This document shows positions 38,687-60,273 of a stretch of DNA of 64,000 bases, piece by piece. Source of the DNA: Acidimicrobiia bacterium (GTDB lineage Bacteria; Actinomycetota; Acidimicrobiia; Spongiisociales; ZC4RG35); contig DATBMA010000114.1 of NCBI GenBank assembly GCA_036555105.1, forward strand, positions 869 to 64,868. The letters are read 5' to 3'. The stretch's first letter is position 1. Every line of letters begins with the position of its first letter. The position numbers were made by a program, and so were the translations under genes. The notes under the pieces were generated by a model, which saw only the letters and a list, made by a program, of their open reading frames with translations, made no database searches and was not told where the DNA came from.

Positions 38687-39259
38687 TCAGAGTTGCAGGC
38701 GCATCAGCCAGCGCCGCCGGCCGGCGCTTCTGGCCGGAGTCTCCAGCACCCGTGCGAAGCCGGCCCGCTCGAACATCGAAGTGAAGCCGACGTACCCGAA
38801 CGCAACATCGACCCGCTGTCCCTCCGGGTCGATGGGGTACGCCTCCAAAGCGGGAACCCCGACCGATCTTGCGTGCTCAACAGCCCCATGCAGCAGTCCT
38901 TCGGCCACACCCTTACGACGGAACCCAACCCGGATCTGGAAACACACGATCGACCACACCGGGACCTCGTCGACCTTCGGGATCGTGCGCGAGCGGACCA
39001 GACGCTCCAACCTCTCACGTGGCCAGAAGCCCAGCCAGCCGGCCGGCTCCCCGTCCAGGTATCCGATCAGGCCAGGAGGGGGGCCCTTCTCCACCTCCGA
39101 CTCGAGGCTGGCTTCGCCAGAGCCGGGGCCACCCTTCCGATAGTCGGATGAGGATCGCCGCCAGTACTGACACCAGCATCCGAGCGGTCCGTGGCCTTCG
39201 AACAACTGAATGATGTCGGGCCAGCGATCGCTGGTGGCGGGGACCACCTCGAGGGCCAT
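38687..39259 (-). CDS. GNAT-family N-acetyltransferase
   Basis: About 190 aa from MALEVVP, with the acetyl-CoA binding segment (...IRVGFRRKGVAEGLL...). It is divergent from selD. Confidence 0.65.
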   Translation of the reverse strand: MALEVVPATSDRWPDIIQLFEGHGPLGCWCQYWRRSSSDYRKGGPGSGEASLESEVEKGPPPGLIGYLDGEPAGWLGFWPRERLERLVRSRTIPKVDEVPVWSIVCFQIRVGFRRKGVAEGLLHGAVEHARSVGVPALEAYPIDPEGQRVDVAFGYVGFTSMFERAGFARVLETPARSAGRRRWLMRLQL

Positions 39260-39310
39260 CCGATGGTTGTACCAGGATTGGCTCGATCCCCGACTCGTAA
39301 CATCGCCGCC

Positions 39311-40348
39311 ATGGCGAACGACTCGGAGAGGCTTCGCCTGACCCGCTTCAGCCACGGGGCCGGCTGTGCCTGCAAGCTGGGCCAAGCCGAGCTCGCCCGG
39401 ATACTGGAGCCCATCCGCGAACACCCGGCGGTGAGCCACCCGGACCTGCTGGTGGGCTTTGGGCTGGCGGACGACGCCGGGGTGTTCGATCTGGGCAACG
39501 GCACCGCCCTGGTACAGACCGTCGACTTCTTCACGCCGGTGGTGGACGAGCCGTATGAATGGGGCAGGATTGCCGCGGCCAACGCCCTCAGCGACGTTTA
39601 TGCGATGGGAGGACAGCCGCTGACTGCGCTCCAGCTGCTTGGCTGGCCGCGGGACGTGCTCTCATGGGAGACGGCCGGCGAGGTCCAGCGGGGGGGAGCT
39701 GACGTGGCCGCCAAAGCGGGCTGCACCCTGGTAGGTGGACATTCAGTCGATCTACCTGAGCCCGTCTACGGACTGGCGGTCACCGGGCTGGTGGATCCGG
39801 CCCGCATGCTGACCAATGCCGGGGCCCGGCCCGGGGACGCGCTTGTCCTCACCAAGCCGCTCGGAATCGGGATCATCACGACCGCGATCAAGCGGGAGAT
39901 CTGCCCTCCCGGCCTGGCTAGGCAGGCTATCGATCAGATGGCCACTCTCAACGAACAGGCCGCCGGCGCCGCGTTGGAGTGCGGCGCCCACGCCGCCACC
40001 GATGTGACCGGTTTCGGTCTGCTCGGGCACTTACGGGAGATGCTCCTTGCTTCAGGGGCCGCCGCCAGCATCGACGCTGGCGCGGTTCCGGTGCTGGATG
40101 GGACCTGGGACCTGCTCGCGGCCGGTGCATTCTCGGGAGGCAGCGGTCGCAATCTCGCCGCCGTCCGTCCCCATGTGGCCGGCGCCGTCGACGAACCGAC
40201 ATTGCGCGTGCTGGCGGACGCACAGACGAGTGGCGGCCTGCTGGTGGCTCTTCCGCTCGATCGGCTGGCGGAAATGCACGCACGGCTGCCGCAGGCGATC
40301 GAAGTCGGGCGGATCACTCAGGGCGATGGGACCATCGAAATCACTTGA
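39311..40348 (+). CDS. selD: Selenide, water dikinase (selenophosphate synthetase), Cys-type
   Basis: ...RLTRFSHGAGCACKLG... aligns to E. coli SelD ...RLTQYSHGAGCGCKIS..., with Cys (not Sec/TGA) at the catalytic position. The AIRS and AIRS_C domains align over the full length. Confidence 0.85.
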   Translation: MANDSERLRLTRFSHGAGCACKLGQAELARILEPIREHPAVSHPDLLVGFGLADDAGVFDLGNGTALVQTVDFFTPVVDEPYEWGRIAAANALSDVYAMGGQPLTALQLLGWPRDVLSWETAGEVQRGGADVAAKAGCTLVGGHSVDLPEPVYGLAVTGLVDPARMLTNAGARPGDALVLTKPLGIGIITTAIKREICPPGLARQAIDQMATLNEQAAGAALECGAHAATDVTGFGLLGHLREMLLASGAAASIDAGAVPVLDGTWDLLAAGAFSGGSGRNLAAVRPHVAGAVDEPTLRVLADAQTSGGLLVALPLDRLAEMHARLPQAIEVGRITQGDGTIEIT

Positions 40349-40372: not shown

Positions 40373-41260
40373 ATGAGCATATGGGAAGAACTCCTCGCCA
40401 AGCCCGGCCCCATCATCGCCGATGGGGCGATGGGGACAATGCTGATGTCGGAGGGCCTCCAGTTCGGCGACCCGCCTGAGCTTTGGAACGTGCTCTATCC
40501 GGATCGAGTGCGGGCCATACACCGCGGTTACATAGATGCCGGGTCAGACATCGTCCTCACCAACACTTTCGGGGGGACCCGCTTCCGGCTGGCCATGCAC
40601 AACCTCGAGAGCCGGGTCGACGAGCTCAACCGCACCGCCGCCATCATGTTGCGGGCCGAAGTCGATCTCTCCGGGCGGAGCGTGGTGGTGGCCGGCGACA
40701 TCGGTCCCTCCGGTCAGATCCTGGCTCCTTTGGGCACGCTCGACTACTACGAGGCCGTGGACGGATTCGCCGAACAGGCCGCTGCACTTGTGGCAGGCAG
40801 GGTCGATGTCATCTGGATCGAGACCATGTCGGCCCTGGAGGAGATGAGGGCCGCATTCGAAGGAGTGAGACGAGCTTCCCCCGACATCCCGATCATCGCC
40901 ACTATGACCTTCGATACCCGAGGTAGGACGATGATGGGGATCACACCCGAGCAGGCGGCCGTCGAGTTGCTGGCGCTCGGCGCCGCCGCCATCGGCGGCA
41001 ACTGTGGCAATGGACCCGATGAGCTACTCGGCGTGGTCGAGAAGATGCGTGAGGTGGCTCCGGACGCGCTGATCGTGGCCAAGTCGAATGTGGGGATGCC
41101 GCAGCTGATCGACGGCCGCGCCGCGTACCTCACCACTCCCGAGGACATGACCAAGTACGCATCGGAGGCCCACCACCTCGGGGCCGGGATCATCGGGGCT
41201 TGCTGCGGGTCGACCCCGACGCTGCTGGCCGACATGGCCGAGGCGCTCCGAGCAGATTGA
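40373..41260 (+). CDS. Homocysteine S-methyltransferase-domain protein (Pfam S-methyl_trans; MmuM/BHMT/MetH-Hcy-domain-like)
   Basis: 295 aa with the Zn-binding Cys motifs GGNCGNGP and GACCGSTP. It is convergent with metF across a 7 bp gap. Confidence 0.8.
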   Translation: MSIWEELLAKPGPIIADGAMGTMLMSEGLQFGDPPELWNVLYPDRVRAIHRGYIDAGSDIVLTNTFGGTRFRLAMHNLESRVDELNRTAAIMLRAEVDLSGRSVVVAGDIGPSGQILAPLGTLDYYEAVDGFAEQAAALVAGRVDVIWIETMSALEEMRAAFEGVRRASPDIPIIATMTFDTRGRTMMGITPEQAAVELLALGAAAIGGNCGNGPDELLGVVEKMREVAPDALIVAKSNVGMPQLIDGRAAYLTTPEDMTKYASEAHHLGAGIIGACCGSTPTLLADMAEALRAD

Positions 41261-41267
41261 GGGGGCT

Positions 41268-42104
41268 CTAGCCGGCCAGGCCGGTCCGCCACCTCTCTAC
41301 CGCGTCCACTTCATTGAAGGTGAACACGTGGAAGCCGGCGATGCCTAGTTCGGGGTCCACTGCCTGTGCCTCGGCCAGGCCGGATAGGATGGGATCGGGG
41401 TTGAAGCCCCCACCCTTGGCTAGCCCGCCTATCAGCCCCTGCTGCTTGGAGAGGTAGCGCATCGAGTCGCCGATCCCGATGCGGGTGGCGATCCGGGTCA
41501 GCTTTACCACTCCAACCGGGGCAGGAAGGCCAACCCGCACCGGCAGGGTGATGCCGCGGGAACGGGCTGCCCTGATCCAGCCCACGATCGCGTCGGGGTC
41601 GAAACAGAGCTGGGTGGCGACATAGGCGGCATATCGCTGCTTGGCCGCCAACGCCTCCCACAGCTTGTCCTCGGGGATATAGGCGTGACCCTCCGGGTAA
41701 CCGGGGACTCCAAGTGTGGAAGGGGCCCCTTCCAGACCGGTGAGGTCCTGGAGGAGCGAGAGCCCGTCTGGATATTCCCCTGGCTCCTGCGCATCCCCTC
41801 CCACCACGAACGCCCGGGTGATGCCGGCGGCCTGAACCCGCTCGACCACTTCGACCAGGTGGGCGTGATCGCGGGTCTGGCGGGCGGAGATGTGGGGGAC
41901 AGCATCCAATCCACGCCCTGCCAACCCCACCGCCAGGTCGATCGTGTGGTCGAGGCCCTTGCTCGGCGAGCAGGTGACCGTGACCTTCGCCGCTTGCGGT
42001 AGGTGTCCGACCTGCTCGTCGAGGTTGGAGAGGGGGATGACCTCATACAGGGGGTCCGCCAGCATCTGGCGGGCAGCAGCAGCCGCGGGCCCGGTGAGCT
42101 TCAT
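41268..42104 (-). CDS. metF: 5,10-methylenetetrahydrofolate reductase
   Basis: 278 aa of the MTHFR family (...VTCSPSKGLDHTIDL...GGDAQEPG...). Its ATG overlaps the stop of the upstream MttB-family gene (ATGA). Confidence 0.8.
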   Translation of the reverse strand: MKLTGPAAAAARQMLADPLYEVIPLSNLDEQVGHLPQAAKVTVTCSPSKGLDHTIDLAVGLAGRGLDAVPHISARQTRDHAHLVEVVERVQAAGITRAFVVGGDAQEPGEYPDGLSLLQDLTGLEGAPSTLGVPGYPEGHAYIPEDKLWEALAAKQRYAAYVATQLCFDPDAIVGWIRAARSRGITLPVRVGLPAPVGVVKLTRIATRIGIGDSMRYLSKQQGLIGGLAKGGGFNPDPILSGLAEAQAVDPELGIAGFHVFTFNEVDAVERWRTGLAG

Positions 42105-43627
42105 ACGTTGGAGTCCGGGAACGAGGCCTTGCGCTGCTCGACGAACTCGGTCAGCTCCAGCTCGGTGGCCGGATCCATCGGGGGCGCTTCGTAGTCCTCG
42201 AGGGTCTTCTTCCAAATCCGGTTGGCGCGGGCGGCGGCGTCGAGGGCTCCCTCCTCGCTCCATTGCTCGAAGCTGGAGTTGTCGGCCACCTGCGACCTCC
42301 AGAAGGCAGTCTCGAAGTTGGCGAGGGTGTGCTCGCTGCCCAGGTAGTGCTGGCCCGGCTCGTTGGCGAGGATGGCGGCTAGGGCCTGGCCGTTGTCGGA
42401 GAGGTCCACACCAGAGGCGAACGCCTCCCACCCTGCGCATTGATCGGCGTCCAGCACGAACTTCTCGTACCCGACGCAGAGCCCCCCTTCCAGCCAGCCG
42501 GCTGCATGGAGGACGAAGTTGACCCCGCCCAGCATCGTGGGCCCCATCGTGTTGGCGCTCTCGTAGGCGGCCTGAGCGTCCGGGATCTTCGATGCGCACA
42601 GTGCTCCACCCGACCTGAAGGGAACCCCGAGCCTCCTGGCCAGCTGGCCCATCACAAACAGCACCAGTGCCGGCTCGGGCGTCCCGAAGCTGGGGGCGCC
42701 GGTCTGCATCGACATCGAGGAGGCGAAGGAACCCAGCACGACCGGTGCCCCGGGCCGTACCAGCTGGGTGAAGGCCATGCCGGACAGCGCTTCGGCCAGG
42801 GTCTGGGTGGCGGTCCCGGCCACGGTCACCGGACTCATCGCCCCGGCGATGATGAACGGCGTGATGAGCGTCGCCTGATTGTTCTCGGCGTAGACCTTGG
42901 CCGCTCCGAGCATCGTGGAGTCCCAGACCAGCGGCGAGTTGGCGTTGATCAACGAGAGAATGACGGTGTTGGACTCGAGGAAGTCGGGGCCGAACAGGAT
43001 CTTGGCCATGTCGACCGTGTCTTGGGCGCGCAGCGGGTGGGTGACCGAGCCCATGAAGGGCTTGTCCGAGTACAGCATGTGGGCGAGGACCATGTCGTAG
43101 TGGCGCTTGTTGACCGGCAGGTCGACCGGCTCGCAAACGGTCCCACCCGAGTGGTGGATGTGGGGATTGGCGTAGGCGAGCTTCACGAAGTTGCGGAAGT
43201 CCTCGATGGTGCCGTAGCGACGCCCGCCGTCGAGATCGCGCACGAATGGGGAGCCGTAAGCAGGTGCGAACACGGTGTTGCGCCCCCCGATCTCGACCGA
43301 GCGAGCCGGGTTGCGAGCGCGCTGGATGAATGCAGCAGGAGCCGTGGCCTTGACCAGCTGGCGGCACAATCCACGGGGGAATCGAACCCGCTCACCGTCG
43401 ACATCCGCTCCGGCCTCCCGCCAGAGGTCGAGGGCCTCGGGTATGCCCCTGAACTCGATACCCACCTGCTCGAGGATGGTGTCGGCGTTCTCCTCGATCA
43501 GAGACAGCCCCTCCTCCGACAGCACTTCAAGGGGGGCAAGAGCGCGGGTGATGAATGGAACCGACTCGGCTATCTGGGCCGCCCGGGCTGCCATTCTTGC
43601 CTCCCGTCCCCTCCTGCGGTCGCTCAT
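42101..43627 (-). CDS. MttB-superfamily (COG5598) substrate:corrinoid methyltransferase, non-pyrrolysine type (quaternary-amine/glycine-betaine methyltransferase MtgB-like)
   Basis: 508 aa continuous ORF with no in-frame TAG. It resembles the trimethylamine methyltransferase MttB family over its full length. Its ATG overlaps the stop of the RamA-like gene (ATGA). Confidence 0.8.
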   Translation of the reverse strand: MSDRRRGREARMAARAAQIAESVPFITRALAPLEVLSEEGLSLIEENADTILEQVGIEFRGIPEALDLWREAGADVDGERVRFPRGLCRQLVKATAPAAFIQRARNPARSVEIGGRNTVFAPAYGSPFVRDLDGGRRYGTIEDFRNFVKLAYANPHIHHSGGTVCEPVDLPVNKRHYDMVLAHMLYSDKPFMGSVTHPLRAQDTVDMAKILFGPDFLESNTVILSLINANSPLVWDSTMLGAAKVYAENNQATLITPFIIAGAMSPVTVAGTATQTLAEALSGMAFTQLVRPGAPVVLGSFASSMSMQTGAPSFGTPEPALVLFVMGQLARRLGVPFRSGGALCASKIPDAQAAYESANTMGPTMLGGVNFVLHAAGWLEGGLCVGYEKFVLDADQCAGWEAFASGVDLSDNGQALAAILANEPGQHYLGSEHTLANFETAFWRSQVADNSSFEQWSEEGALDAAARANRIWKKTLEDYEAPPMDPATELELTEFVEQRKASFPDSNV

Positions 43628-45627
43628 CCGGTCCTCCCTCTGCGGCCCCTTCGGGCTCCCGTCATCTCCGCCCTGGCCGGCAGCTCGACTTCCGCCGCCA
43701 GATGGCGGTAATCGTCGATCCGGTGTGGGAATGCCATGGCGTTGACAAAGTGCTCCTGGAAGCGCGGTTCCACCGCCGTCTCGACCTTCTCAATCGTCCG
43801 CACCACCTGCTCGATCTCGGCCCGCTTGTCCCGGTTGAGCAGCGTCATCAACGCCCCGGTCCCGGCCGCATTGCCGGCGGCGCCCACCGCTTCGAGGTCG
43901 CAGTCGGGCACCAGCCCCAGCACCAGGGCGTAGAGAGGGTCGATGTGTGATCCAAAGGCGCCGGCCAGGCGGATCCGATCCACCGTGGTCGTCCCCATGT
44001 GGTCCATCAGGAGCTTGCAGCCGGCGTGGAGGGCAGCTTTGGCCAGCTGGATCGCGCGTACGTCGTTTTGGGTGATCCATATGTCGGGCTCCCCCTCCCA
44101 CAACAGGTAGGAGAAGGTTCGATCGTCACGACGGACTCGCGCTGTCCGGTCTGATTCAATGATCACACCGTCGGGGGAGATGATCCCGGCGAGGAAAAGC
44201 TCGGCGATGGCCTCGATGATCCCCGAGCCACAGATCCCGGTCGGCACCATGCTGAAGCCCGGCTCGTCCGACCAGTGGCGGTCGCCAATGGCTCTGATCC
44301 GCGGCTCCAGAGTCGTCCGATCGATGCGGACGCGCTCGATTGCACCCGGGGCTGCTCGCTGTCCCGATGAGATCTGGGCGCCCTCGAAGGCCGGCCCGGT
44401 AGGAGAGGAGGCGGCGAGGAGCCGGTGACGGTTCCCGAGCACGATCTCGGCATTGGTGCCGACATCCACGGCCAGAGTCAGCTCGTCCCGTCGATATGGC
44501 CCTTCTGCCAGCACCATCCCGGCCGCGTCCGCACCGACGTGGCCGGCGATGCACGGCAAGACGTAGATGCGGGCGGAAGGCAGCAGGTCTAGCGCGAGGT
44601 CGGCTGCCCGACGCTCCACCGCGAGGTCTGTCACCAGCGCGAAAGGGGCCCCGCCCAGCTCGATCGGATCGAATCCGAGGAAAAGGTGGTGCATGATCGG
44701 GTTGCCGACGGCAGTCATTGCCAGCACGTCATCCCGCTCCACTCCGGCCGCCTCGACCAACTCACCGATCAGGCCGTTGATGCAGTCCCGCACCGCCGCG
44801 GTCAGGTCGGCGGCTCCGCCCGGGTTCATCATCACGTAGGAGACCCGGCTCATGAGGTCCTCACCGAAGCGGATCTGCGGGTTCATGGCTCCGGCCGACG
44901 CCAGTACCTCGCCGGTGTGGAGGTCGGCCAGGTGCCCGGCCACCGTGGTGGACCCGATGTCGAAGGCGACCCCGTAGGCGTAGTCCTGGAAGCCGGGCCG
45001 GACCGAGACGATGACGCCGCCAGATCGCGCCAGAACAGGGGGATGCGGGTTGGAGACGGCGGCGGTCACCTTCCAGTCGCCGGCCCTGAGAGCAGCCTGC
45101 AGGCCGGGCAGGACGGCCGGGTCGACGTCGAGGCCGGTGAGGTCCCACTGCTGCTCGAGGGCGGCAAGCAGCCGCCTGAGGTCGGACGAAGGGTCTGCCA
45201 GGTCGGGCGCCGCCACCTCGACGTAGTGCTGGGTGATGACCGGGTCGATCTCGAGCTCGAGCGGCAGGGCTTCCTTCCTCACCACCTGGCGATGCACTTG
45301 GCTCTCGGCAGGCACATCCACCAGCAGGTCGCCTCGCAACCGGGCGGTGCAACCAAGGCGATGCCCATCTGCCAGCCCCCTGCGCTGGGCGAAGTCGAGC
45401 TCAACCGGGCCTATCGGCGACAGGTGGGCGGCTTCCGAGTGGATGCCGTGTTTCGGAAAGTCCCCTTCCATGACCTCCACCCGACAGCGGCCACATATGC
45501 CGCGGCCCCCGCACACCGAGTCCAGATCCACTCCCAGTTGGCGGGCGGCGTCGAGCAGGGTCGTTTCGTCGGGAAAGCGACCCCGCCGGCCGGAAGGGGT
45601 GAATACGAGCAAGCTCTCTCGGGTCAC
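43624..45627 (-). CDS. Corrinoid reductive activase (RamA/RACE type: N-terminal plant-type 2Fe-2S ferredoxin + ASKHA/DUF4445 ATPase)
   Basis: From the GTG (VTRESLLVFTPSG...): a ferredoxin motif CGGRGICGRCRV, then an ASKHA-fold region (FDIGSTTVAGHL...). Its GTG overlaps the stop of the MtgA-like gene (GTGA). Confidence 0.8.
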   Translation of the reverse strand: MTRESLLVFTPSGRRGRFPDETTLLDAARQLGVDLDSVCGGRGICGRCRVEVMEGDFPKHGIHSEAAHLSPIGPVELDFAQRRGLADGHRLGCTARLRGDLLVDVPAESQVHRQVVRKEALPLELEIDPVITQHYVEVAAPDLADPSSDLRRLLAALEQQWDLTGLDVDPAVLPGLQAALRAGDWKVTAAVSNPHPPVLARSGGVIVSVRPGFQDYAYGVAFDIGSTTVAGHLADLHTGEVLASAGAMNPQIRFGEDLMSRVSYVMMNPGGAADLTAAVRDCINGLIGELVEAAGVERDDVLAMTAVGNPIMHHLFLGFDPIELGGAPFALVTDLAVERRAADLALDLLPSARIYVLPCIAGHVGADAAGMVLAEGPYRRDELTLAVDVGTNAEIVLGNRHRLLAASSPTGPAFEGAQISSGQRAAPGAIERVRIDRTTLEPRIRAIGDRHWSDEPGFSMVPTGICGSGIIEAIAELFLAGIISPDGVIIESDRTARVRRDDRTFSYLLWEGEPDIWITQNDVRAIQLAKAALHAGCKLLMDHMGTTTVDRIRLAGAFGSHIDPLYALVLGLVPDCDLEAVGAAGNAAGTGALMTLLNRDKRAEIEQVVRTIEKVETAVEPRFQEHFVNAMAFPHRIDDYRHLAAEVELPARAEMTGARRGRRGRTG

Positions 45628-46526
45628 TGTCCGGCCACGGCCCGGCGGCGGGGGCGGTCCCGTCGCCCGCCTTCCGCCGGGCTTTCGACCCGGTACGCCC
45701 TGATCCAGCGGCCGCACTCGGGGTCATGACCGCTGAGGACATCCGCAGCCAGGACCGCTTGGCGGATCTCCGGCTCGATCGGGTTGGTGATGGCCGAGGT
45801 CATCCCGGCGGCGATTGCCATCGCCAGGAAGGTGGCGTTGATGCCGGCTCGATTGGGAAGGCCGAAGCTGACGTTCGAGGCCCCGCAGGTGGTGTTGACC
45901 CCGAGCTCCTCGCGGAGGCGGCGGACCAGGTGGAAGACCTGGCGACCAGCCGTTGCCATTGCCCCCACCGGCATGAGGAGGGGATCCACCACGACGTCCT
46001 CCTTGGGGATGCCGTGATCGGCGGCTGCCGAAATGATCTTGCGCGCCACCTCGAAGCGGACATCGGGATCCTCCGATATACCCGTCTCGTCGTTGGTGAT
46101 CGCAACCACCGCCGCCCCATGCCGTGCCACCAGCGGCAGCACCGCTTCGATCCTCTCGTCCTCGCCGGTGACGGAGTTGACGAGGGCCTTGCCTTGGTAG
46201 ACGGAGAGCCCGGCCTCCAGGGCTTCCACGATGGAGGAGTCGATTGACAGCGGCACGTCGGTGAGGCTTTGCACCAGCTTGACCGTCTCGGCCAGGATCG
46301 CCGGCTCGTCGGCCAGCGGGATCCCGGCGTTGACGTCGAGCATCTGGGCGCCGGCCTCGACCTGGCGAGCAACATCGGCGATGACCGTCGAGAAGTCACC
46401 CTCGGCCATCTCGGCGGCCAGCTTCTTGCGGCCGGTGGGGTTTATGCGCTCCCCGATGATCACGAAGGGCCGCTCGAACCCGATCACCACCTCTCTGGTC
46501 CCGGAGGAAACGACGGTGTTAACCAT
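45624..46526 (-). CDS. Pterin-binding methyltransferase (methylcorrinoid:tetrahydrofolate methyltransferase, MtgA/MtrH/MeTr-like)
   Basis: 300 aa from MVNTVVSSG. The signature FVIIGERINPTG is that of the pterin-binding (DHPS-like) domain found in methionine synthase, MtrH and AcsE. The 70 upstream codons in the track ORF (MRPRDFETSRPQ...) are a translation of repeat R9 and are excluded. Confidence 0.8.
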   Translation of the reverse strand: MVNTVVSSGTREVVIGFERPFVIIGERINPTGRKKLAAEMAEGDFSTVIADVARQVEAGAQMLDVNAGIPLADEPAILAETVKLVQSLTDVPLSIDSSIVEALEAGLSVYQGKALVNSVTGEDERIEAVLPLVARHGAAVVAITNDETGISEDPDVRFEVARKIISAAADHGIPKEDVVVDPLLMPVGAMATAGRQVFHLVRRLREELGVNTTCGASNVSFGLPNRAGINATFLAMAIAAGMTSAITNPIEPEIRQAVLAADVLSGHDPECGRWIRAYRVESPAEGGRRDRPRRRAVAGQ

Positions 46527-46529
46527 CTG

Positions 46530-46608
46530 CGGTCTCGAGGTCTCGAAGTCTCGAGGTCGCATGGTGAGACCCCGCGACTGTGAGACCGTGCGATCGTGGG
46601 ACCTCACA
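46530..46608. repeat. GTCTCAC-family intergenic element R9 (5' leader of the MtgA-like/RamA/MttB/MetF transcript)
   Basis: ggtctcga-ggtctcga-agtctcga-ggtcgca-tggtgagac-cccgcgac-tgtgagac-cgtgcgat-cgtgggac-ctcacac. Confidence 0.8.
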
Positions 46609-46900
46609 CATATGCGCCTCCGGTTCGCACCAGGCCGGCCAGGGCGTCGTCGGTGAACTCGGCCTCCAGCCGGGCGGCTTCGGCCGAGGCCACTGTCTCC
46701 AGATCGGCATCGCAGGGACGGGTCACTCGCCTCCACTGAGCCAGGTAATCGTCGGTCCCGATGAGCCCCACCCTGGTGGCGGCGGCATCTATCGCCTCCT
46801 GGAACCGCTCCGAGAGGACCGCCTTGCTGGTCTGACGGCCCTCTCTGGCCGTCACCTGGGCGGGGATGTCCCGCCAGTAGATGACGGTGAGCTCAGCCAT
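46604..46900 (-). CDS. Small hypothetical protein co-transcribed with the corrinoid module
   Basis: 98 aa from MAELTVIYWRDIPAQV.... Its start overlaps the DUF1638-like stop by 8 nt. I cannot assign a family with confidence. Confidence 0.4.
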   Translation of the reverse strand: MAELTVIYWRDIPAQVTAREGRQTSKAVLSERFQEAIDAAATRVGLIGTDDYLAQWRRVTRPCDADLETVASAEAARLEAEFTDDALAGLVRTGGAYV

Positions 46901-47540
46901 CGTTTGCTCCCGCGAAGCGGGCCAGGGAGGTTTCCAGGTCTCCCATCCCGGTGGCGACCCGCTCGTAGCCGAGGCCCAGGTAGGCAGCCGCCTCCTGCCC
47001 TCGGCGATCGAGCTCCGGATCGTCGGTCTGGGCAAGGAATACCAGGCGCAGGTAGTTGCCGAAGTATTGGGGGAGGAGCTCAGGATGGCGGTCGAGGCCG
47101 AGGCCCCTGACCACGAACAGGTCGAAGTGCCGGCAGAGGAAGTCGGTCAGATAGAACGTGGCGGGCTCGGCATCGTGCATCGCCAGGAATTCGGCCCCTC
47201 CGGCGAAGAACTGATAGCAGTGGGCGCCGGGGATCCTTTCGATTCCACGCTCGGCCAGCAGCCGGTCGAGGTCCCCCCCGGTGCCGCAGTCGGCGTAACC
47301 GACGAAGACCCGCTGGTAGCGGCCTTCCGCCCGATCGAGGCGCTGCCTGACGGCGTCGGTGATGAGTCCCGGTGTGTTGTGAAGCTTGGCCGGGAGGCAC
47401 TCGATGATCAGATGATCCCAGCCATTGAGGCGACGCAACTCGATCAGTTCCCGGGCGATGGCGCCACAGGCGATCACCAGTATCTCGGCTTCCAGCTCCG
47501 GTGCGAAGGTCGCTTCCTGATCGAAGAGAGCGACGGCCAT
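46893..47540 (-). CDS. DUF1638-like protein (conserved accessory gene of MttB/corrinoid gene clusters)
   Basis: 215 aa from MAVALFDQE.... Conserved blocks ILVIACGAIARE, VGYADCGTGG and GAHCYQF. It lies 1 nt downstream of the corrinoid protein stop. Confidence 0.55.
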   Translation of the reverse strand: MAVALFDQEATFAPELEAEILVIACGAIARELIELRRLNGWDHLIIECLPAKLHNTPGLITDAVRQRLDRAEGRYQRVFVGYADCGTGGDLDRLLAERGIERIPGAHCYQFFAGGAEFLAMHDAEPATFYLTDFLCRHFDLFVVRGLGLDRHPELLPQYFGNYLRLVFLAQTDDPELDRRGQEAAAYLGLGYERVATGMGDLETSLARFAGANDG

Positions 47541-47541
47541 G

Positions 47542-48243
47542 TCAGTCCTCGCCGGAGACGAGGCGTCTGGCCTTGACCAGTGCTTGTGCGGTCTCGGCGG
47601 CGATGGCGGCATCGCGGCAATAGGCATCTGCCCCCACCGCTTGGGCGAACTCCTCGTTCAGGGGCGCGCCGCCTACGAGGACGATGTAGTCATCTCTGAT
47701 GCCCTTCTCCTTGAGGGTGTCGATGACCACTTTCATGTACGGCATCGTCGTGGTCAGCAAAGCCGACATGCCGAGGATGTCGGGCTTGTGCTCCTCGAGG
47801 GCTGCCAGGTACTTCTCGACCGGGTTGTTGATGCCGAGGTCGATCACTTCGAACCCGGCTCCTTCCAGCATCATCGCCACGAGGTTCTTGCCGATGTCGT
47901 GGATGTCGCCCTTGACGGTCCCGATCACGACTTTCCCGACCGGCTCGGCCCCGGTTTCGGCCAGGAGCGGGCGCAGGATCTCCATGGCGGCCTTCATGGC
48001 GTTGGCTGCCATCAGCACCTCCGGCACGAAGAGGATGCCGTCTCGGAAGTCGATGCCCACGATACGCATCCCTTCCACCAGAGCGTCATTGAGCACACGG
48101 TCCGGCGGCCAGCCCCGCTGCAACAGGATGTTGGTGCCCTGGACCAGCTCTTCCTTCAGCCCGTCGTAGAGGTCGTCATGCATCTGCTCGACCAACTCGG
48201 GGTCGGCGAGGGATGAGAGATCAAGTTCTTGATCGTCTGGCAT
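47542..48243 (-). CDS. Corrinoid (cobalamin-binding) protein, MtgC/MttC-like
   Basis: B12-binding_2 helical cap followed by a Rossmann B12 domain with the DxHxxG motif (GDIHDIGKNLV). Confidence 0.85.
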   Translation of the reverse strand: MPDDQELDLSSLADPELVEQMHDDLYDGLKEELVQGTNILLQRGWPPDRVLNDALVEGMRIVGIDFRDGILFVPEVLMAANAMKAAMEILRPLLAETGAEPVGKVVIGTVKGDIHDIGKNLVAMMLEGAGFEVIDLGINNPVEKYLAALEEHKPDILGMSALLTTTMPYMKVVIDTLKEKGIRDDYIVLVGGAPLNEEFAQAVGADAYCRDAAIAAETAQALVKARRLVSGED

Positions 48244-48244
48244 C

Positions 48245-49060
48245 TTGTTCGATCCTCATGGGTTCCGTATGATGGAACTGTATCGGATAGTGGAACAGGA
48301 TACTCCAGTGGTGCAAACGGTGTCGAGCGTGCATTCCATCGAACGGGCCTTCGCCATCCTGGATGCCCTGCGATCCGGCCCGGCCCGCGTGACCGATCTG
48401 GCGAGAAGAGTCGACCTGCCCAAGAGCACCGTCGCCAGGCTGCTGGCAACCCTGCAGTCGGTCGGGGCGGTCGAGCGTGACCCCGATGGTGTCCGCTACC
48501 GCGCGTGCCGCGAGTGGGCGCAATCGGCCGGTCCTGGCGGGGGCATCGAGACCATCGTGGCGATGGCCCGCCCGAGCTTGGTGGGATTGGTGGAACGGCT
48601 GGGCGAGTCGGCCGGGCTCTCGGTGCCGGACGGCTACCTGGCCCACTACGTCGCCCAGGTCGACTCGGGCAACCCTGTGCAGGTGCGGGACTGGACGGGG
48701 GAGAGGATCCCCATGCACGCGGTCTCGTCGGGCCTGGTGTTCTTGGCCGATCTCCCGCGGGAGGCGCTGTCCGACTTCCTGCGGCATCCGCTGAGCGAGT
48801 TCACGTCCCACACGGTGACCTCTCCTGCCCAGCTGAGAAGGCGTCTGCAGCAGGTGCGGGCCGACGGCTACGCCTGGGTGGAAGAAGAGTTCGCCGAGGG
48901 GATCAACTCGGTGGCGGCCCCGGTGAGGAGGGTTGACGGGAGAACCCTCGCCGCCTTGCACGTGCATGGCCCTTCTTACCGTTTCCCCGGCAGGCGAGCC
49001 CGAGCCGCATCCAACCAGGTTGTGGCGGCCGCCGATGCACTGTCTGCCCAGCTGACCTGA
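48245..49060 (+). CDS. IclR-family transcriptional regulator
   Basis: N-terminal wHTH (SIERAFAILDALRSGPARVTDLARRVDLPKSTVARLL) and a C-terminal IclR effector domain. It is divergent from the corrinoid operon. An alternative start is MMELY at 48269. Confidence 0.8.
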   Translation: MFDPHGFRMMELYRIVEQDTPVVQTVSSVHSIERAFAILDALRSGPARVTDLARRVDLPKSTVARLLATLQSVGAVERDPDGVRYRACREWAQSAGPGGGIETIVAMARPSLVGLVERLGESAGLSVPDGYLAHYVAQVDSGNPVQVRDWTGERIPMHAVSSGLVFLADLPREALSDFLRHPLSEFTSHTVTSPAQLRRRLQQVRADGYAWVEEEFAEGINSVAAPVRRVDGRTLAALHVHGPSYRFPGRRARAASNQVVAAADALSAQLT

Positions 49061-49062
49061 CC

Positions 49063-49407
49063 TCAGGCGGGGGCCAACTCCGCTCGCTGACCGAAGAAGA
49101 TGCCGGGGACCGCCATCGCCACCACTGCGAGCTGGATCATCCAGACCGTGGTGGGAAGGAGCAGGGCGGTACCGAACAGCACGAATCCCCCCACTCTTGC
49201 CCTGAATCCCTTGGTCCCGCGCCATCGCATCAGGCCGAGCAGGTAGAGGATCCCGCCGGCCACCGCCGCCACCGATAGCAAGAAGATCGGGTGTATGCCG
49301 GAGATCGGAGTGACGTTGAAGTAGGCGATCACGGCGCCGACCATCACCCACATTCCGAACAGGATCGCCAGCCCGGCACCGGCCATGCCGAGGACGCCGG
49401 CAACCAT
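49063..49407 (-). CDS. Small polytopic membrane protein, function unknown
   Basis: Three predicted TM helices from [12 protein letters not shown].... It is divergent from betB. The longer track ORF is probably an over-extension. Confidence 0.4.
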
Positions 49408-49477
49408 GCGCAAGCCTTGTTTGGGCACGGCGGGCGAGCGTACCTGGGCAGCCGGACCTCTACACTCCTCCGGCCCC

Positions 49478-50932
49478 ATGGACACCATTCGCCTCTTCAT
49501 TGACGGTGCCCTGACCGATGCCACCTCCGCCGAGGTTTTCGACAACGTCAACCCGGCCACCGGCATGGTCATCTCGCAGGTTCAGCAGGCAAGCGACGCC
49601 GACGTCGACCGAGCAGTGGTTTCCGCTGCGGCGGCCTTCGAAGAGTGGAGCCAGTGGTCGGGGACCCAAAGGGGACGGGTGCTCAATCAGGCGGGCCGCC
49701 TCCTCCGGGAGCGGAATCAGGAACTGGCCGAGCTCGAGGTCATCGACACCGGCAAGCCGATCGGCGAGGCGATGTCAGTGGACATCCTCTCCGGGGCGGA
49801 CTGCATCGAGTACTACGCCGGCCTGGCTCCGGCGGTGCATGGTGAGCATTTCGACCTTGGTGGGTCTTGGGCCTACACGAGGCGGGAGCCGCTCGGGGTC
49901 TGTGTTGGGATCGGAGCGTGGAACTACCCGATCCAGATCGCATGCTGGAAGTCGGCGCCCGCCCTTGCATGCGGCAACACGATGGTGTTCAAGCCCGCAG
50001 AGCTGACCCCGACCACAGCTCTCAAGCTGGCCGAGATCTACTACGAGGCGGGTGTGCCGGCCGGTGCCTTCAACGTCGTCCAGGGAGATGAGCGGACCGG
50101 CCGAGCCCTCACCCTCCATCCGCGGGTCGCCAAGGTGTCGCTGACGGGCGAGGTAGGCACCGGGGTGAAGGTGATGGAGCAAGCGGCTGCCACCCTCAAG
50201 CACATCACCCTCGAGCTTGGCGGCAAGTCCCCTCTCATCGTCTTCGAGGACGCCGACCTCGACAATGCCGTGTCTGCCGCTCTGATGGGCAACTTCTACA
50301 CCCAGGGCGAGATCTGCTCGAACGGGACCCGCGTGTTCGTGCACTCCTCGATCCACGATCAGTTCGTCGAGCGGCTGGCGGCGAGGACCGAGAAGATCAG
50401 GGTCGGGGACCCGATGGACCCTGAGACCCATGCCGGGGCGTTGATCTCGGCTAGCCACCTCGAGAAGGTGATGGGTTACATCGAGCAAGGGAAAGAGGAG
50501 GGAGCCCGGCTGGTGACCGGCGGTTCCCGCCCGTCCGATCCGGAGCTGGCGGACGGCTTCTTCGTGCTGCCGACGATCTTCGACGAGTGCCGCGATGACA
50601 TGACGATCGTCCAGGAGGAGATATTCGGCCCGGTCATGGCGGTTCTCACGTTCGAGAGCGAGGACGAGGTAGTGGATCGGGCCAACGCCACCGAATATGG
50701 GCTGGCGGCTGGGGTGTTCACCAACGATCTGCAGCGCGCCCATCGAGTTGTGGCCCGCCTCGAAGCGGGGACGATCTGGATCAACAACTACAACCTCACT
50801 CCTGTCGAGATCCCGTTCGGTGGCTACAAAAGGTCAGGGATGGGGCGGGAGAACAGCCTGACCACCATCAACCACTACACGCAATTGAAGACAGTCTTCG
50901 TCGAAATGGGGGATGTGGAGGCTCCGTACTGA
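49478..50932 (+). CDS. betB: Betaine-aldehyde dehydrogenase
   Basis: Aligns block-for-block with E. coli BetB ([34 protein letters not shown]..., [11 protein letters not shown]..., EEIFGPVM..., [11 protein letters not shown]). Start at [10 protein letters not shown]. Confidence 0.9.
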
Positions 50933-51762
50933 TGGAGCAGTTCCTGGCGGGCCGGGTGGCGGTGGTAACCGGGGGAGCGTCGGGCATGGGCAGGGCGATG
51001 GCTCTCGCCTTCGCCTCCGCCGGGGCCGATGTCGCCATCGGGTCCTTGCTGGCCGAGGCTGCCGCGGCCCGGCCCGATGGCGAGCTCGGCTTCCTGCCGG
51101 GACAGGACCAGCTCAGTCAGACCGGGGCCGAGATCGAAGCCCATGGGGTCCGAAGCCTGGCAATGGGCCTCGACGTCACCTCGGATCAGTCGATGGACGA
51201 GTTCTTCGCTGCTGTCGAGTCCAAGCTGGGGCCGGTCGACATTCTTGCCAATGCCGCCGGCATCACCGCCGAGCAAACCATCACCGGCCACCCGGACCCT
51301 CTATGGCACAAGGTCATCGACGTCAACCTCAACGGGACCTACAGGGCGATCCGCCGTGCCCTGCCGGGCATGCTCGAGCGCAATTGGGGGCGTGTCATCA
51401 ACATCGCCTCTACTGCTGCCACCGTCGGCGCGGCTACTTCCGGCGCTTACTGCGCTTCCAAGGCCGGGGTGGTCGGCCTGACCAGGGCGGTGGCGCTGGA
51501 AGGCGCCCCGCACGGAGTCACCTGCAATGCCATCTCGCCCACCTGGGTCGACACCGCCTTCGCCCGCGACTGGATGAGCGAGATCGCCGAGCACGAGCAC
51601 CGCACCGGCGACGAGTACGTGGCAGACGTCAAGAAGTCGAACCCCCAGGGCCGGTTGATCGCCCCCTCCGAGATCGGGGCACTGGCCCTGTTCCTGTGCC
51701 GGGAGGAGGCTCTCGGGATCACGATGGAGGACCTCCGGGTCTCGGCCGGCAGCCTCTGGTGA
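50932..51762 (+). CDS. SDR-family NAD(P)-dependent oxidoreductase
   Basis: TGGASGMG Rossmann motif and a YxxxK catalytic motif (YCASK). Its ATG overlaps the betB stop (TGATG). Confidence 0.85.
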   Translation: MEQFLAGRVAVVTGGASGMGRAMALAFASAGADVAIGSLLAEAAAARPDGELGFLPGQDQLSQTGAEIEAHGVRSLAMGLDVTSDQSMDEFFAAVESKLGPVDILANAAGITAEQTITGHPDPLWHKVIDVNLNGTYRAIRRALPGMLERNWGRVINIASTAATVGAATSGAYCASKAGVVGLTRAVALEGAPHGVTCNAISPTWVDTAFARDWMSEIAEHEHRTGDEYVADVKKSNPQGRLIAPSEIGALALFLCREEALGITMEDLRVSAGSLW

Positions 51763-51765
51763 ACA

Positions 51766-51804
51766 GTCTCGAAGTCGCACAGTCGCACAGTCGCACGGTG
51801 AGAC
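51766..51804. repeat. GTCTCAC-family intergenic element R10
   Basis: agtctcga-agtcgcac-agtcgcac-agtcgcac-ggtgagac, immediately after the SDR stop. Confidence 0.75.
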
Positions 51805-51810
51805 TGAAAG

Positions 51811-51836
51811 GAAGGCCCCCGTTGCCGGGGGCCTTC
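51811..51836. terminator. Bidirectional intrinsic terminator hairpin
   Basis: gaaggcccccg-ttgc-cgggggccttc, between the convergent SDR gene and the betaine-binding-protein gene. Confidence 0.8.
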
Positions 51837-51862
51837 GGGTTGTCAATCGGCTGGAGTTCAGA

Positions 51863-52798
51863 TCAGGGCAGCCATGAGTCGACGACGGACTGGTTTGCCG
51901 CCACCCAGTCGGACGCCGCCTGCTCGAGGGTCTTTCCATCGAAGGCCACCGCGCCGAGCATCTCGATCTGATCATCGTTGGTCAGTTTCATGTTCGACAG
52001 GATCGTGTACGCGTCCGGCGCTTCTTCCTGCAGGCCCGACCACGCAGCCTTGAACAGCACATCCTCCGGGTAGTCACAGTCGATCGCCGCCGGGTCGGCA
52101 TAGCAATCGGCCGTGTAATCCGGCAGGGTCACGTTGACGAGGTCGTACTTGGCGAAGGCTGAATGCGGCGTCCAGAAGTAAAATACCGTCGGCTCCTGGT
52201 TCTCGTACTTGGTGTCGAGATCGGCGAGGATCGCTTCCTCGGATCCGGCGAACACCACTTGCATCGGCATTGCGAGGTTGGTGATTATCTGCTCGTCGTA
52301 CTGGGACCAGGACGAGTCGCCACCCAGGAATCGGCCGTTGTCGCCGGTGTCCGGAGTCGCGAACAGGCTAGCGAGTGCAGGATCCTGGAACCCTTCGTAC
52401 GTCGCCAGCTCCGGGTGCTCGTCGACCATGTACTTCGGCATGAACCAGCCGATCTTGCCGATTACGCCTAGCTCGCCGATATTGACGACGCTGCCGTCGT
52501 CGATGTATGCCTGCTCCGCGGCCACCACTCCGGAAGGCCAGATCTCAAGAACGGCATCGAGGGTTCCGTCCGAGAGCCCCGTGAACATCGTGTTCTCGTC
52601 GATCTCGGTTATCTCCACGGTGGTATCCGTGTTGGCTTCGATCACTTCTTTGGCGATCAGTGAGTTGAGGGCAGAGGCATCCCAGGGGTTGGTCACGAGC
52701 GAAATCGTGCCGCTGCCGCCTCCTCCCTGCGCACAGGCAGAAGCGAGCAGGCCCAACAGCCCTCCCACCGCCGCCATGGTCAGCACCTTGCGATTCAT
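51863..52798 (-). CDS. Glycine betaine/proline betaine ABC transporter substrate-binding lipoprotein (OpuAC/ProX family)
   Basis: Lipobox LLASAC. OpuAC-fold signature residues are present, including the Trp-rich ligand cage (WDAS..., IWPSG, WFMPKY). Confidence 0.85.
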   Translation of the reverse strand: MNRKVLTMAAVGGLLGLLASACAQGGGGSGTISLVTNPWDASALNSLIAKEVIEANTDTTVEITEIDENTMFTGLSDGTLDAVLEIWPSGVVAAEQAYIDDGSVVNIGELGVIGKIGWFMPKYMVDEHPELATYEGFQDPALASLFATPDTGDNGRFLGGDSSWSQYDEQIITNLAMPMQVVFAGSEEAILADLDTKYENQEPTVFYFWTPHSAFAKYDLVNVTLPDYTADCYADPAAIDCDYPEDVLFKAAWSGLQEEAPDAYTILSNMKLTNDDQIEMLGAVAFDGKTLEQAASDWVAANQSVVDSWLP

Positions 52799-52865
52799 CC
52801 GTTAGCTCCTCCTCGAAAACAGCCAGTCCAGGCACTGGAATTGGCCTGCGGTCTACATTACCGAC

Positions 52866-53906
52866 ATGGTGACCGCCCTTGGGGAGGCCAGCCCGTCCAG
52901 CCTCTTGGTGGACCACCTTTGGAAAGTGTTCGGCGACAGCCCTGGCAAGGCAATCGAGATGGCGGACAAAGGCCTCTCCCGGTCGGAGATCCTGGCCGCC
53001 ACCGGCTGCACGGTGGGAGTTCGGGACATCTCCTTCGACGTCTCCCCGGGAGAAACGTTCGTCGTCATGGGCCTCTCCGGAAGCGGCAAGTCCACACTGA
53101 TCAGATGCGCCGCCAGGCTGATAGAGCCCACCAAAGGGAGGGTCATCATCGACGGCGCCGATCTTCTCACCATGAGTGATGACGACCTCCGTCAGGTCCG
53201 ACGAAACAAGCTGTCGATGGTGTTCCAACATTTCGGGCTGTTTCCCCACCGTCGGGTCATCGACAACGTCGCGTTTGGCCTCGAAGTTCAGGGCATGTCG
53301 AAGTCCGAGAGGCACGAACGTGCCGAAGCTGTCATCAAGGTCGTGGGGCTCGAAGGCTGGGAAACCCACTATCCCCAGCAGCTCTCAGGTGGGATGCAGC
53401 AGCGCGTCGGCCTCGCCAGGGCGCTGGCCCTCGATCCACAGGTGCTGTTCTTCGATGAGCCGTTCTCGGCCTTGGATCCGCTGATCAGACGGGACATGCA
53501 GGACGAGCTGATTCGACTTCAGGCGGAGCTGCACTGCACGATCGTCTTCATCACCCATGACTTCGCCGAGGCGCTGAAGCTGGGCGACCGGATCGCCATC
53601 ATGAAGGATGGTGCATTCGATCAGATTGGCACTCCCGTCGAGATCGTCACCAAGCCCGCCACCGACTACGTTCGCGAGTTCACCAAAGATGTTCCGAAGG
53701 CCAAGGTGATCACAGCCTCTGCTGTGATCGATGCGGGAGTGGTGGCCGCACCGAATGCTCCCCGCCTGCACATGAACACACCGGTGGAGCAGTTGGTTCC
53801 GCACCTCCTTCACAGTGGCGACGCGGTGGCGATCTTCGACGACGCCGGCCGCATCCTCGGCGCGGTCGACCGGGAGAGCGTGGCCCGGGTCCTGACGGAG
53901 GGTTGA
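52866..53906 (+). CDS. Glycine betaine/proline ABC transporter ATP-binding protein (ProV/OpuAA) with a C-terminal CBS-like region
   Basis: Walker A GLSGSGKST, signature LSGGMQQRVGLARAL, and a Walker B region. The N-terminal extension is typical of ProV. Confidence 0.9.
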   Translation: MVTALGEASPSSLLVDHLWKVFGDSPGKAIEMADKGLSRSEILAATGCTVGVRDISFDVSPGETFVVMGLSGSGKSTLIRCAARLIEPTKGRVIIDGADLLTMSDDDLRQVRRNKLSMVFQHFGLFPHRRVIDNVAFGLEVQGMSKSERHERAEAVIKVVGLEGWETHYPQQLSGGMQQRVGLARALALDPQVLFFDEPFSALDPLIRRDMQDELIRLQAELHCTIVFITHDFAEALKLGDRIAIMKDGAFDQIGTPVEIVTKPATDYVREFTKDVPKAKVITASAVIDAGVVAAPNAPRLHMNTPVEQLVPHLLHSGDAVAIFDDAGRILGAVDRESVARVLTEG

Positions 53907-55852: not shown

Positions 55853-55916
55853 CTGCCGAAGCACGGGAAGTCGCCGGTGAGGGCTTGTTAGCCTCGCCGC
55901 CCGTGAGAGGACTCAG

Positions 55917-58421: not shown

Positions 58422-58423
58422 GA

Positions 58424-58474
58424 CGGTCTCGCGGTCTCACGGTCTCACTGTGAGGCCTCGAAACCATGAGACCG
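58424..58474. repeat. GTCTCAC-family intergenic element R11
   Basis: cggtctcg-cggtctcac-ggtctcac-tgtgaggcc-tcgaaacc-atgagaccgg. The termini are inverted (cggtctc...gagaccg). Confidence 0.75.
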
Positions 58475-58523
58475 GCCGGGCCGCTCGGGGATCGGCCATG
58501 GGTCGTAAGCTCTGGCCGCCCCT

Positions 58524-59294
58524 ATGAGCCTGCGTGTACTCGTCTGCGTCAAGCGCGTCCCCGCGCCCGGAGCTGAAATCGTCCTCACCGATGACCGGAA
58601 GCGGCTGGACACCGAGTTCCTCGGCTTCACCACCAGCCCCCACGAGGAGTGTGCGGTGGAGGAGGCGGTAAGAATCAAAGAGAGTTCCGGCGGCACGGTC
58701 ACTGTTCTGACCCTTGGTCCCGAGGAGGCCGAAGAGCAGCTGCGTTACGCGGTGTCGGTGGGGGCCGACCAAGCCGTGCTGATCGTCAACCAGGGCGACG
58801 ACCTCGATCCGCAGGCGACGTCGAGTGCAGTCGCGGCGGCGATCCGGTCGCTCGAGGAAGCCGAGGGCCCTTTCAACCTGATCCTCTTCGGCAACGAGTC
58901 CGCGGACTCCGGCGGGTACCAGGTAGGTGTGAGAGTCGCATTCGCCCTCGGTCGGCCGATGGTCAACGGCATCAAGGGGATCGAGGTGGAGCAGGGATCG
59001 ATCACCGCCCGCCGCGCCACCGACGCGGGCTTCGAGGTGTACCGGCTGCCTATGCCGGCGGTGCTCGGAGTGAAGGAGGGCATCAACCTTCCTCGTTATC
59101 CGACGCTGACCGGTCGCCTTGCTTCCAAGAAGGTGGTGATCGAGAGACGTGAGCTCACCCCCGAGCGGGGCGGATTGGAGCTGGTCGAGCTCTCGAGGCC
59201 GGTTCAGCAGAAGGTCGACACCGTCATGCTTGGCCGGGGGGCGGATGCCGCCCCCCGGGTGGTCGACACGCTGGTCGAATTGGGAGTCTTGTGA
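58524..59294 (+). CDS. etfB: Electron transfer flavoprotein beta subunit
   Basis: MSLRVLVCVKRVP... is the canonical EtfB N-terminus. Confidence 0.9.
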   Translation: MSLRVLVCVKRVPAPGAEIVLTDDRKRLDTEFLGFTTSPHEECAVEEAVRIKESSGGTVTVLTLGPEEAEEQLRYAVSVGADQAVLIVNQGDDLDPQATSSAVAAAIRSLEEAEGPFNLILFGNESADSGGYQVGVRVAFALGRPMVNGIKGIEVEQGSITARRATDAGFEVYRLPMPAVLGVKEGINLPRYPTLTGRLASKKVVIERRELTPERGGLELVELSRPVQQKVDTVMLGRGADAAPRVVDTLVELGVL

Positions 59295-60253: not shown

Positions 60254-60273
60254 AGCAGAGGAGAATCACCGAC

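Follow-up and report, generated by a model that had tools for sequence, protein, structure and literature searches.

What is the methyl donor of a small homocysteine-binding protein whose gene lies at the edge of a glycine betaine catabolic island in an Acidimicrobiia bacterium? The gene, here called mtgE, occupies positions 40373..41260 (+) of the stretch of DNA that was analyzed (64,000 nucleotides, hereafter the window), which belongs to a metagenome-assembled genome (MAG) of 2.27 Mb in 123 contigs, estimated to be 93% complete. A preliminary description of the window had weighed two answers: a methionine synthase split into separate proteins, with a RamA-type activase in the reactivation role, or a methyltransferase that acts directly, like betaine-homocysteine S-methyltransferase (BHMT) or MmuM. 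The first is the best-supported reading and matches the systems reported in PMC5764234 and PMC12478193. The 295-amino acid (aa) protein is probably MtgE, the module that binds homocysteine in a cobalamin-dependent methionine synthase made of several proteins. The evidence consists of the identity of its domain, conserved ligands, the linkage of its gene, its joint occurrence with the corrinoid protein MtgC and complementarity with the fused methionine synthase MetH.

A probable MtgE module, its linkage and its genomic setting

The reading frame of mtgE is open, and its product belongs to a short subtype without a C-terminal tail. The protein matches PF02574 along the entire profile (positions 1-283 of 283; 217 bits, E 5e-64); this match, at residues 14-292, is the only one in Pfam. 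It is a stand-alone PF02574 protein, without fused pterin, B12 or activation domains, and the flanking genes are separate open reading frames (ORFs). The family is large, with 6453 matches among the 8000 candidates scored, and homologues 79-84% identical to the product are present on independent metagenome contigs, so mtgE is a real gene.

The two zinc-cysteine motifs noted in the preliminary description are indeed intact: GGNCGNGP spans residues 208-215 and GACCGSTP residues 275-282. Their cysteines C211, C277 and C278 align with the zinc ligands C207, C272 and C273 of Thermotoga maritima MetH (1q7m), and E150, the homocysteine-binding glutamate, aligns with E146 of the same enzyme. In an alignment of 30 homologues, the cysteine triad and Glu150 are invariant. 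Comparison with solved structures agrees: with 185 bits (E 2.5e-53), the homocysteine domain of T. maritima MetH is the best match, followed by other MetH structures at 86-129 bits, BHMT at 72 and Escherichia coli MmuM (5dml) at 39. With the N-terminal domain of MetH (T. maritima 1q7m, Thermus thermophilus 8ssc) the protein shares the (beta/alpha)8 homocysteine barrel, the three-cysteine zinc site and the ET and TNTFG motifs. It differs from MetH in being unfused to pterin, B12-cap, B12 and activation domains, and in a tree the stand-alone modules are separate from the N-terminal parts of MetH proteins of the class. It is not a canonical MetH: it reaches 147 bits with TIGR02082, whose cut-off is 1011, and matches model positions 7-312 only.

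The description of homocysteine, pterin and B12 modules as separate genes within 8 kb, together with a RamA-type activase, is borne out. The region from mtgE through the corrinoid-protein gene (40373 to 48243) measures 7.9 kb and holds all of the named partners. The same arrangement recurs in the closest genome locus (L014, a MAG labelled Acidimicrobiia), where an mtgE whose product is 80% identical converges on metF2-mtgB-ramA-mtgD-DUF1638-mtgC as in the window. Most of the other close relatives of mtgE, 63-70% identical, are found in Chloroflexota. In Anaerolineales-type loci of that phylum, mtgE has the corrinoid-protein gene as its immediate neighbor on one side and DUF1638 on the other, all on one strand, in clusters that also hold RamA, MttB, methylenetetrahydrofolate reductase (MTHFR) and a pterin methyltransferase. 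In the Limnocylindria mtgE is unlinked to the mtg cluster; three of the four genomes checked with such an unlinked gene carry mtgC-DUF1638-mtgD elsewhere, with an MtgC 79-80% identical to that of the window.

To examine co-occurrence, 151 genomes of the class were sampled, with cut-offs of E <= 1e-60 for an MtgE homologue and E <= 1e-50 for MtgC. An MtgE homologue was found in 25 genomes and MtgC in 26: both in 24, MtgE alone in one, MtgC alone in two and neither in 124. The three exceptions are G131, which has the homocysteine module and no MtgC at E <= 1e-50, and G098 and G043, which have MtgC without the module; G043 has MetH. Taken as a stand-in for MetH, matches to the activation domain PF02965 occur in 80 of the 151 genomes and in only 5 of the 25 MtgE carriers, the remaining 20 carriers being without a match. 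In the family to which the window belongs, MetH is missing from all six genera with MtgE and present in nine of ten MtgE-free genomes. As the sampled genomes are related, these numbers describe the sample and do not amount to a statistical test; six families are represented among the carriers.

A check for a canonical metH or metE elsewhere in the genome had been proposed at the outset. Across the 93%-complete assembly there is no match to PF02965, no fused MetH and no full-length MetE; a short MetE-like gene, discussed below, is the only one of its kind. PF02574 genes number two, both stand-alone. The genome holds one corrinoid protein of the methyltransferase type, one methyl-tetrahydrofolate (THF):corrinoid methyltransferase and one RamA, each of them in the mtg cluster. 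Candidates for a second split set elsewhere were all rejected. A B12-binding protein on contig C116 has no cap domain and adjoins succinyl-CoA synthetase, a B12-binding match on contig C88 is a fragment cut by the contig end, a pterin protein on contig C120 resembles dihydropteroate synthase, and the pterin-binding proteins other than MtgD are FolP-like.

The adjacent operon and a possible methyl-transfer cycle

The gene mtgE and a tightly packed minus-strand operon converge, with 7 nucleotides between their stop codons. The operon begins with mtgC (47542..48243, -), which encodes a corrinoid (cobalamin-binding) protein, the putative shared methyl carrier, with PF02607 (B12-binding_2) and PF02310 (B12-binding) domains and a DxHxxG motif whose residues D113, H115 and G118 are invariant. 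Next comes a DUF1638 gene (46893..47540, -; PF07796, 98 bits), which presumably starts at Met30 of the listed ORF; in Phaeobacter, DUF1638 has been linked to the reactivation of B12 for a split MetH (PMC5764234). The product of mtgD (45624..46526, -) is a pterin-binding methyl-THF:corrinoid methyltransferase (107 bits to PF00809 and 360 bits to NF005719, whose cut-off is 259). Its listed ORF extends to 46736; the likely start is the ATG at 46526, as homologue alignments begin at ORF residues 57-71. The ramA gene (43624..45627, -) encodes a RamA/RACo-type reductive activase of corrinoid proteins with Fer2, RACo_linker, Raco_middle and RACo_C_ter domains; it is listed to 45717, and the point at which homologue alignments begin suggests GTG 45627 as its likely start.

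The product of mtgB (42101..43627, -) is a non-pyrrolysine methyltransferase of the MttB family, glycine betaine type (PF06253, 754 bits), and is 66% identical to the Sinorhizobium meliloti MttB-family protein that adjoins the MtgC of that organism. Last in the operon is a divergent MTHFR-family gene, metF2-like (41268..42104, -), with 30.7 bits to PF02219 and 36 bits to TIGR00676, whose ATG at 42104 overlaps the stop codon of mtgB. As the assembly contains no other MTHFR-family match, its product may have to serve both the oxidation of betaine-derived methyl-THF and the supply of methyl-THF for methionine synthesis.

The cycle suggested by this gene set resembles that of MetH, distributed over separate proteins. 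We infer every catalytic step, the physical contact between MtgC and MtgE and a direct flux from betaine to methionine. Homocysteine would be held by Glu150, and its thiol activated by the zinc site of C211, C277 and C278. The thiolate would then be methylated by methyl-Co(III)-MtgC, which would yield methionine and leave the carrier as Co(I)-MtgC. Two routes could re-methylate the carrier: MtgD would do so from 5-methyl-THF in a biosynthetic, MetH-like reaction, and MtgB from glycine betaine in a catabolic one. Whenever MtgC became oxidized to the Co(II) state, the RamA-type activase and the DUF1638 protein would restore Co(I), replacing the reactivation domain of MetH.

Structure prediction of an MtgC-MtgE complex lends weak support to the proposed contact, with a score of 0.36 against 0.00 for the best control. 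Of 80 solved complexes, 58 reached the mark applied, as did 2 of 110 mismatched pairs; only 7 of the 80, but both mismatches, did so at scores of 0.60 or below. The two proteins were predicted from their own alignments; at least 86% of contacts agree between runs, and the pLDDT (predicted local distance difference test) of the partner is at least 88. Since full-length MetH structures exist, the pass may reflect likeness to solved structures.

This kind of system is already known, as the three-part MetH of Phaeobacter and the MtgBCDE of Ruegeria. In Phaeobacter, genetic work describes a three-part MetH with RamA-like and DUF1638 proteins (Price 2018, PMC5764234). In Ruegeria pomeroyi, mtgC and mtgD mutants are methionine auxotrophs and are also unable to use betaine (Mausz 2025, PMC12478193). 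The set described here shares with them a stand-alone PF02574 protein, a corrinoid protein, a pterin methyltransferase, RamA-like and DUF1638 proteins, MtgB and a metF2 paralogue, together with a highly conserved type of MtgC and a genome in which no canonical MetH was found (93%-complete assembly). It differs in its host, an Acidimicrobiia-like actinobacterium rather than a proteobacterium, and in the position of mtgE, which abuts the mtgBCD operon here and is usually unlinked in marine proteobacteria. The short subtype of the window is about 44% identical to alphaproteobacterial MtgE, a figure that refers to the S. meliloti protein Bmt and not to the other genetically characterized members, PGA1_c13370 of Phaeobacter inhibens and SPO1884 of R. 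pomeroyi.

The remainder of the choline and glycine betaine catabolic island occupies window positions 48245-61971. An IclR regulator gene stands back-to-back with mtgC, and the other genes include those for a betaine-aldehyde dehydrogenase (800 bits), a short-chain dehydrogenase/reductase, an OpuAC-type binding protein with an ATP-binding cassette ATPase and a permease, a dimethylglycine-dehydrogenase-type enzyme of DAO-FAO_M-GCV_T architecture, the beta and alpha subunits of electron-transfer flavoprotein, and formate-THF ligase. A 376-aa minus-strand ORF at 48221-49351 has no family match and runs antisense to the plus-strand IclR regulator gene, which is the real gene there. The mechanically listed ORFs 45624-46736, 43624-45717 and 48221-49351 are thus over-extended or spurious, in a window whose DNA is rich in G and C.

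Other methyl donors and other sources of methionine

A direct BHMT (Bmt, EC 2.1.1.5) would bind glycine betaine itself and produce dimethylglycine and methionine without a corrinoid protein. Gene names and location both invite this reading. The best NCBIfam model for the mtgE product, NF005718, bears the name betaine--homocysteine S-methyltransferase, homologues in MAGs are named likewise, the gene borders the betaine island, and the product is 44% identical over 285 residues to the S. meliloti bmt product, with which it shares the zinc motifs. The name itself is undercut by the reinterpretation of its source. Mausz et al. argue that S. meliloti Bmt ('Bhmt'), from which the model name stems, is an MtgE, as a bmt mutant catabolizes betaine if fed methionine and the betaine-binding residues are absent (PMC12478193). 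The annotated BHMT activity of this 337-aa protein, which unlike that of the window has a C-terminal extension, is thus disputed. Its gene lies about 8 kb from a cobalamin-binding-protein gene and about 6 kb from an MttB-family gene, with DUF1638 close by, and the MtgC of the window is 78% identical to the cobalamin-binding protein beside MttB and DUF1638. Mausz et al. count these S. meliloti relatives of MtgC, MtgB and MtgE as MtgBCDE proteins. The score of the mtgE product against NF005718, 332.7 bits, also falls short of the cut-off of 338.

The protein itself argues against direct use of betaine. It shares with mammalian BHMT (1lt7, 1umy) and SAR11-type Bhmt the Pfam family and zinc-thiolate chemistry, but its match to solved BHMT is far below that to the MetH domain. 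Trp44, Tyr77 and Tyr160 of human BHMT, which we take to be betaine-pocket residues, are not kept: in a transitive alignment through the second PF02574 protein of the genome, they correspond to a 2-residue gap, Gly67 and Thr151, respectively. Gly67 sits within the MetH-like motif TNTFGG. A role of Phe76/Tyr77 in BHMT has been reported (PMC3871600). The second PF02574 protein is the BHMT-like one. Encoded on contig C19 (G000:C19:80450-81304; L005:8355-9347, -), it has 330 aa, is 30% identical to the mtgE product, scores 238 bits against mammalian BHMT and adjoins a gene resembling monomeric sarcosine oxidase or N-methyltryptophan oxidase. Of the human BHMT residues, it retains Tyr77 and Glu159, with Phe in place of Trp44 and Thr in place of Tyr160, and it is a candidate for a true BHMT in an actinobacterium. 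BHMT activity of the mtgE product appears quite improbable, and the widespread 'betaine--homocysteine S-methyltransferase' label for its family is probably wrong in these organisms.

The other direct mechanism named in the preliminary description is no better placed. A homocysteine S-methyltransferase of the MmuM/YagD type, or of the kind found at the N-terminus of YitJ, would use S-methylmethionine or S-adenosylmethionine in salvage or repair, unrelated to the corrinoid system. The shared Pfam domain, a length near that of MmuM (about 300 aa), a partial match to the bifunctional homocysteine methyltransferase/MTHFR (YitJ-type) model NF006396 and the adjoining MTHFR-like gene speak for it. Both dedicated models nevertheless fail, NF006396 at 246 bits against a cut-off of 453 and the MmuM model NF007020 at 89 against 215, and the match to the MmuM structure amounts to only 39 bits. 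This reading would also leave unexplained the position of mtgE between mtgC and DUF1638 in Chloroflexota and its near-perfect co-occurrence with MtgC; we regard it as quite improbable.

The same-strand upstream neighbor of mtgE is selD (39191-40348, +; TIGR00476, 393 bits), which ends 24 nucleotides 5' of the mtgE start codon; the pair looks co-transcribed and operon-like. Some PF02574 enzymes methylate seleno-analogues, yet a function in selenium metabolism, for example as a selenohomocysteine or selenocysteine methyltransferase, is extremely improbable. Neither L014 nor any of the 99 other loci examined has selD next to the gene, so the adjacency was treated as incidental, and no further link between the family and selenium appeared (selenium partner genes were not searched for).

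Several points weigh against MtgE as the homocysteine module of a split synthase. The gene stands outside the mtg operon here, on the opposite strand and apparently co-transcribed with selD. Its product is just below the NF005718 cut-off, lacks the tail of about 35-40 aa that marks the long type of S. meliloti and Acidimicrobiia, and is only 44-48% identical to that type. Among the genetically characterized members, the direct sequence comparison covered S. meliloti Bmt. In an assembly that is 93% complete, MetH could also be unassembled. Finally, methionine may also come from sources other than the split route, given the BHMT-type paralogue and a short MetE-like protein. The latter (427 aa, contig C74; L003:1306-2589, +) belongs to the NF005085/PRK06520 subfamily (447 bits, with only 46 bits to PF01717) and could be a methionine synthase of the core-MetE kind, independent of B12.

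Distribution and two probable MtgE subtypes

For mtgE alone, the outcome is a matter of annotation rather than discovery. The new elements are modest: MtgBCDE sets resolved at the genome level in Acidimicrobiia and Chloroflexota, with linkage of mtgE to the cluster; a short subtype of MtgE; a close association with MtgC in the class, along with complementarity to MetH; and the coexistence of a BHMT-type paralogue and a short MetE-like gene with the split set in one small genome. The genome screen of marine bacteria by Mausz et al. gave matches in Alpha-, Gamma- and Deltaproteobacteria, and Actinomycetota accounted for about 5% of Tara mtgC reads (PMC12478193); Acidimicrobiia, Actinomycetota and Chloroflexota are not mentioned in the supplements of that paper. 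The B12-dependent link between glycine betaine demethylation and methionine synthesis, known from marine Proteobacteria, would thereby extend to Acidimicrobiia and to many soil and freshwater Chloroflexota, and a split synthase would explain how MetH-less Acidimicrobiia produce methionine.

Homologues in the class sample are 43-50% identical to the mtgE product of the window, and length separates two types. The eight class-sample homologues examined are long, at about 330 aa or more with a basic C-terminal tail, and the three that were scored pass NF005718 at 391-491 bits. The extension of the long type measures about 35-40 aa in both Acidimicrobiia and S. meliloti and has an Arg-rich end in the Acidimicrobiia copies. 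In several other genomes of the class, a long-type gene follows mtgC-DUF1638-mtgD-ramA-mtgB-metF2 on the same strand. The short type, of about 295-305 aa and without the tail, comprises the proteins of the window, L014 and Chloroflexota.

A maximum-likelihood tree places the window and L014 together (Shimodaira-Hasegawa-like approximate likelihood-ratio test, SH-aLRT, 99) inside a short-type clade with the Chloroflexota sequences (SH-aLRT 100). This clade is apart from the long-type Acidimicrobiia, and the MetH N-termini and the BHMT-type paralogue fall outside both. The position of the window and L014 inside the short-type clade is weakly placed, and the approximately unbiased test does not reject a tree in which all Acidimicrobiia are united (p 0.24). 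Transfer of mtgE from Chloroflexota, or its replacement, is suggested by this topology but not shown. The identity of MtgC to that of the window cannot settle the matter, because it falls in similar ranges within the class (77-85%), in Limnocylindria and in S. meliloti; in Anaerolineales-type loci it is 66-69%.

Two divergent MtgE subtypes, 44-48% identical, thus accompany a corrinoid protein that is about 66-85% identical across three phyla, and the lineage of the window has the Chloroflexota-like short type where its family relatives have the long one. It is conceivable, if doubtful, that MtgB loads and MtgE unloads MtgC, so that the three proteins together would act as a B12-dependent 'betaine:homocysteine methyltransferase' that bypasses tetrahydrofolate, with the homocysteine module perhaps an exchangeable plug-in.

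MtgC is unusually conserved across phyla in comparison with the homocysteine module meant to dock on it. A short-type gene also occurs in a methionine-pathway context, on a complete Limnocylindria-type chromosome (L044:9842-12854). There, no mtg cluster lies nearby, the best corrinoid protein found in that genome shares only 45% identity with MtgC, and the short-type gene is followed by genes for an Lrp/AsnC regulator and a pyridoxal phosphate enzyme of Cys/Met metabolism.

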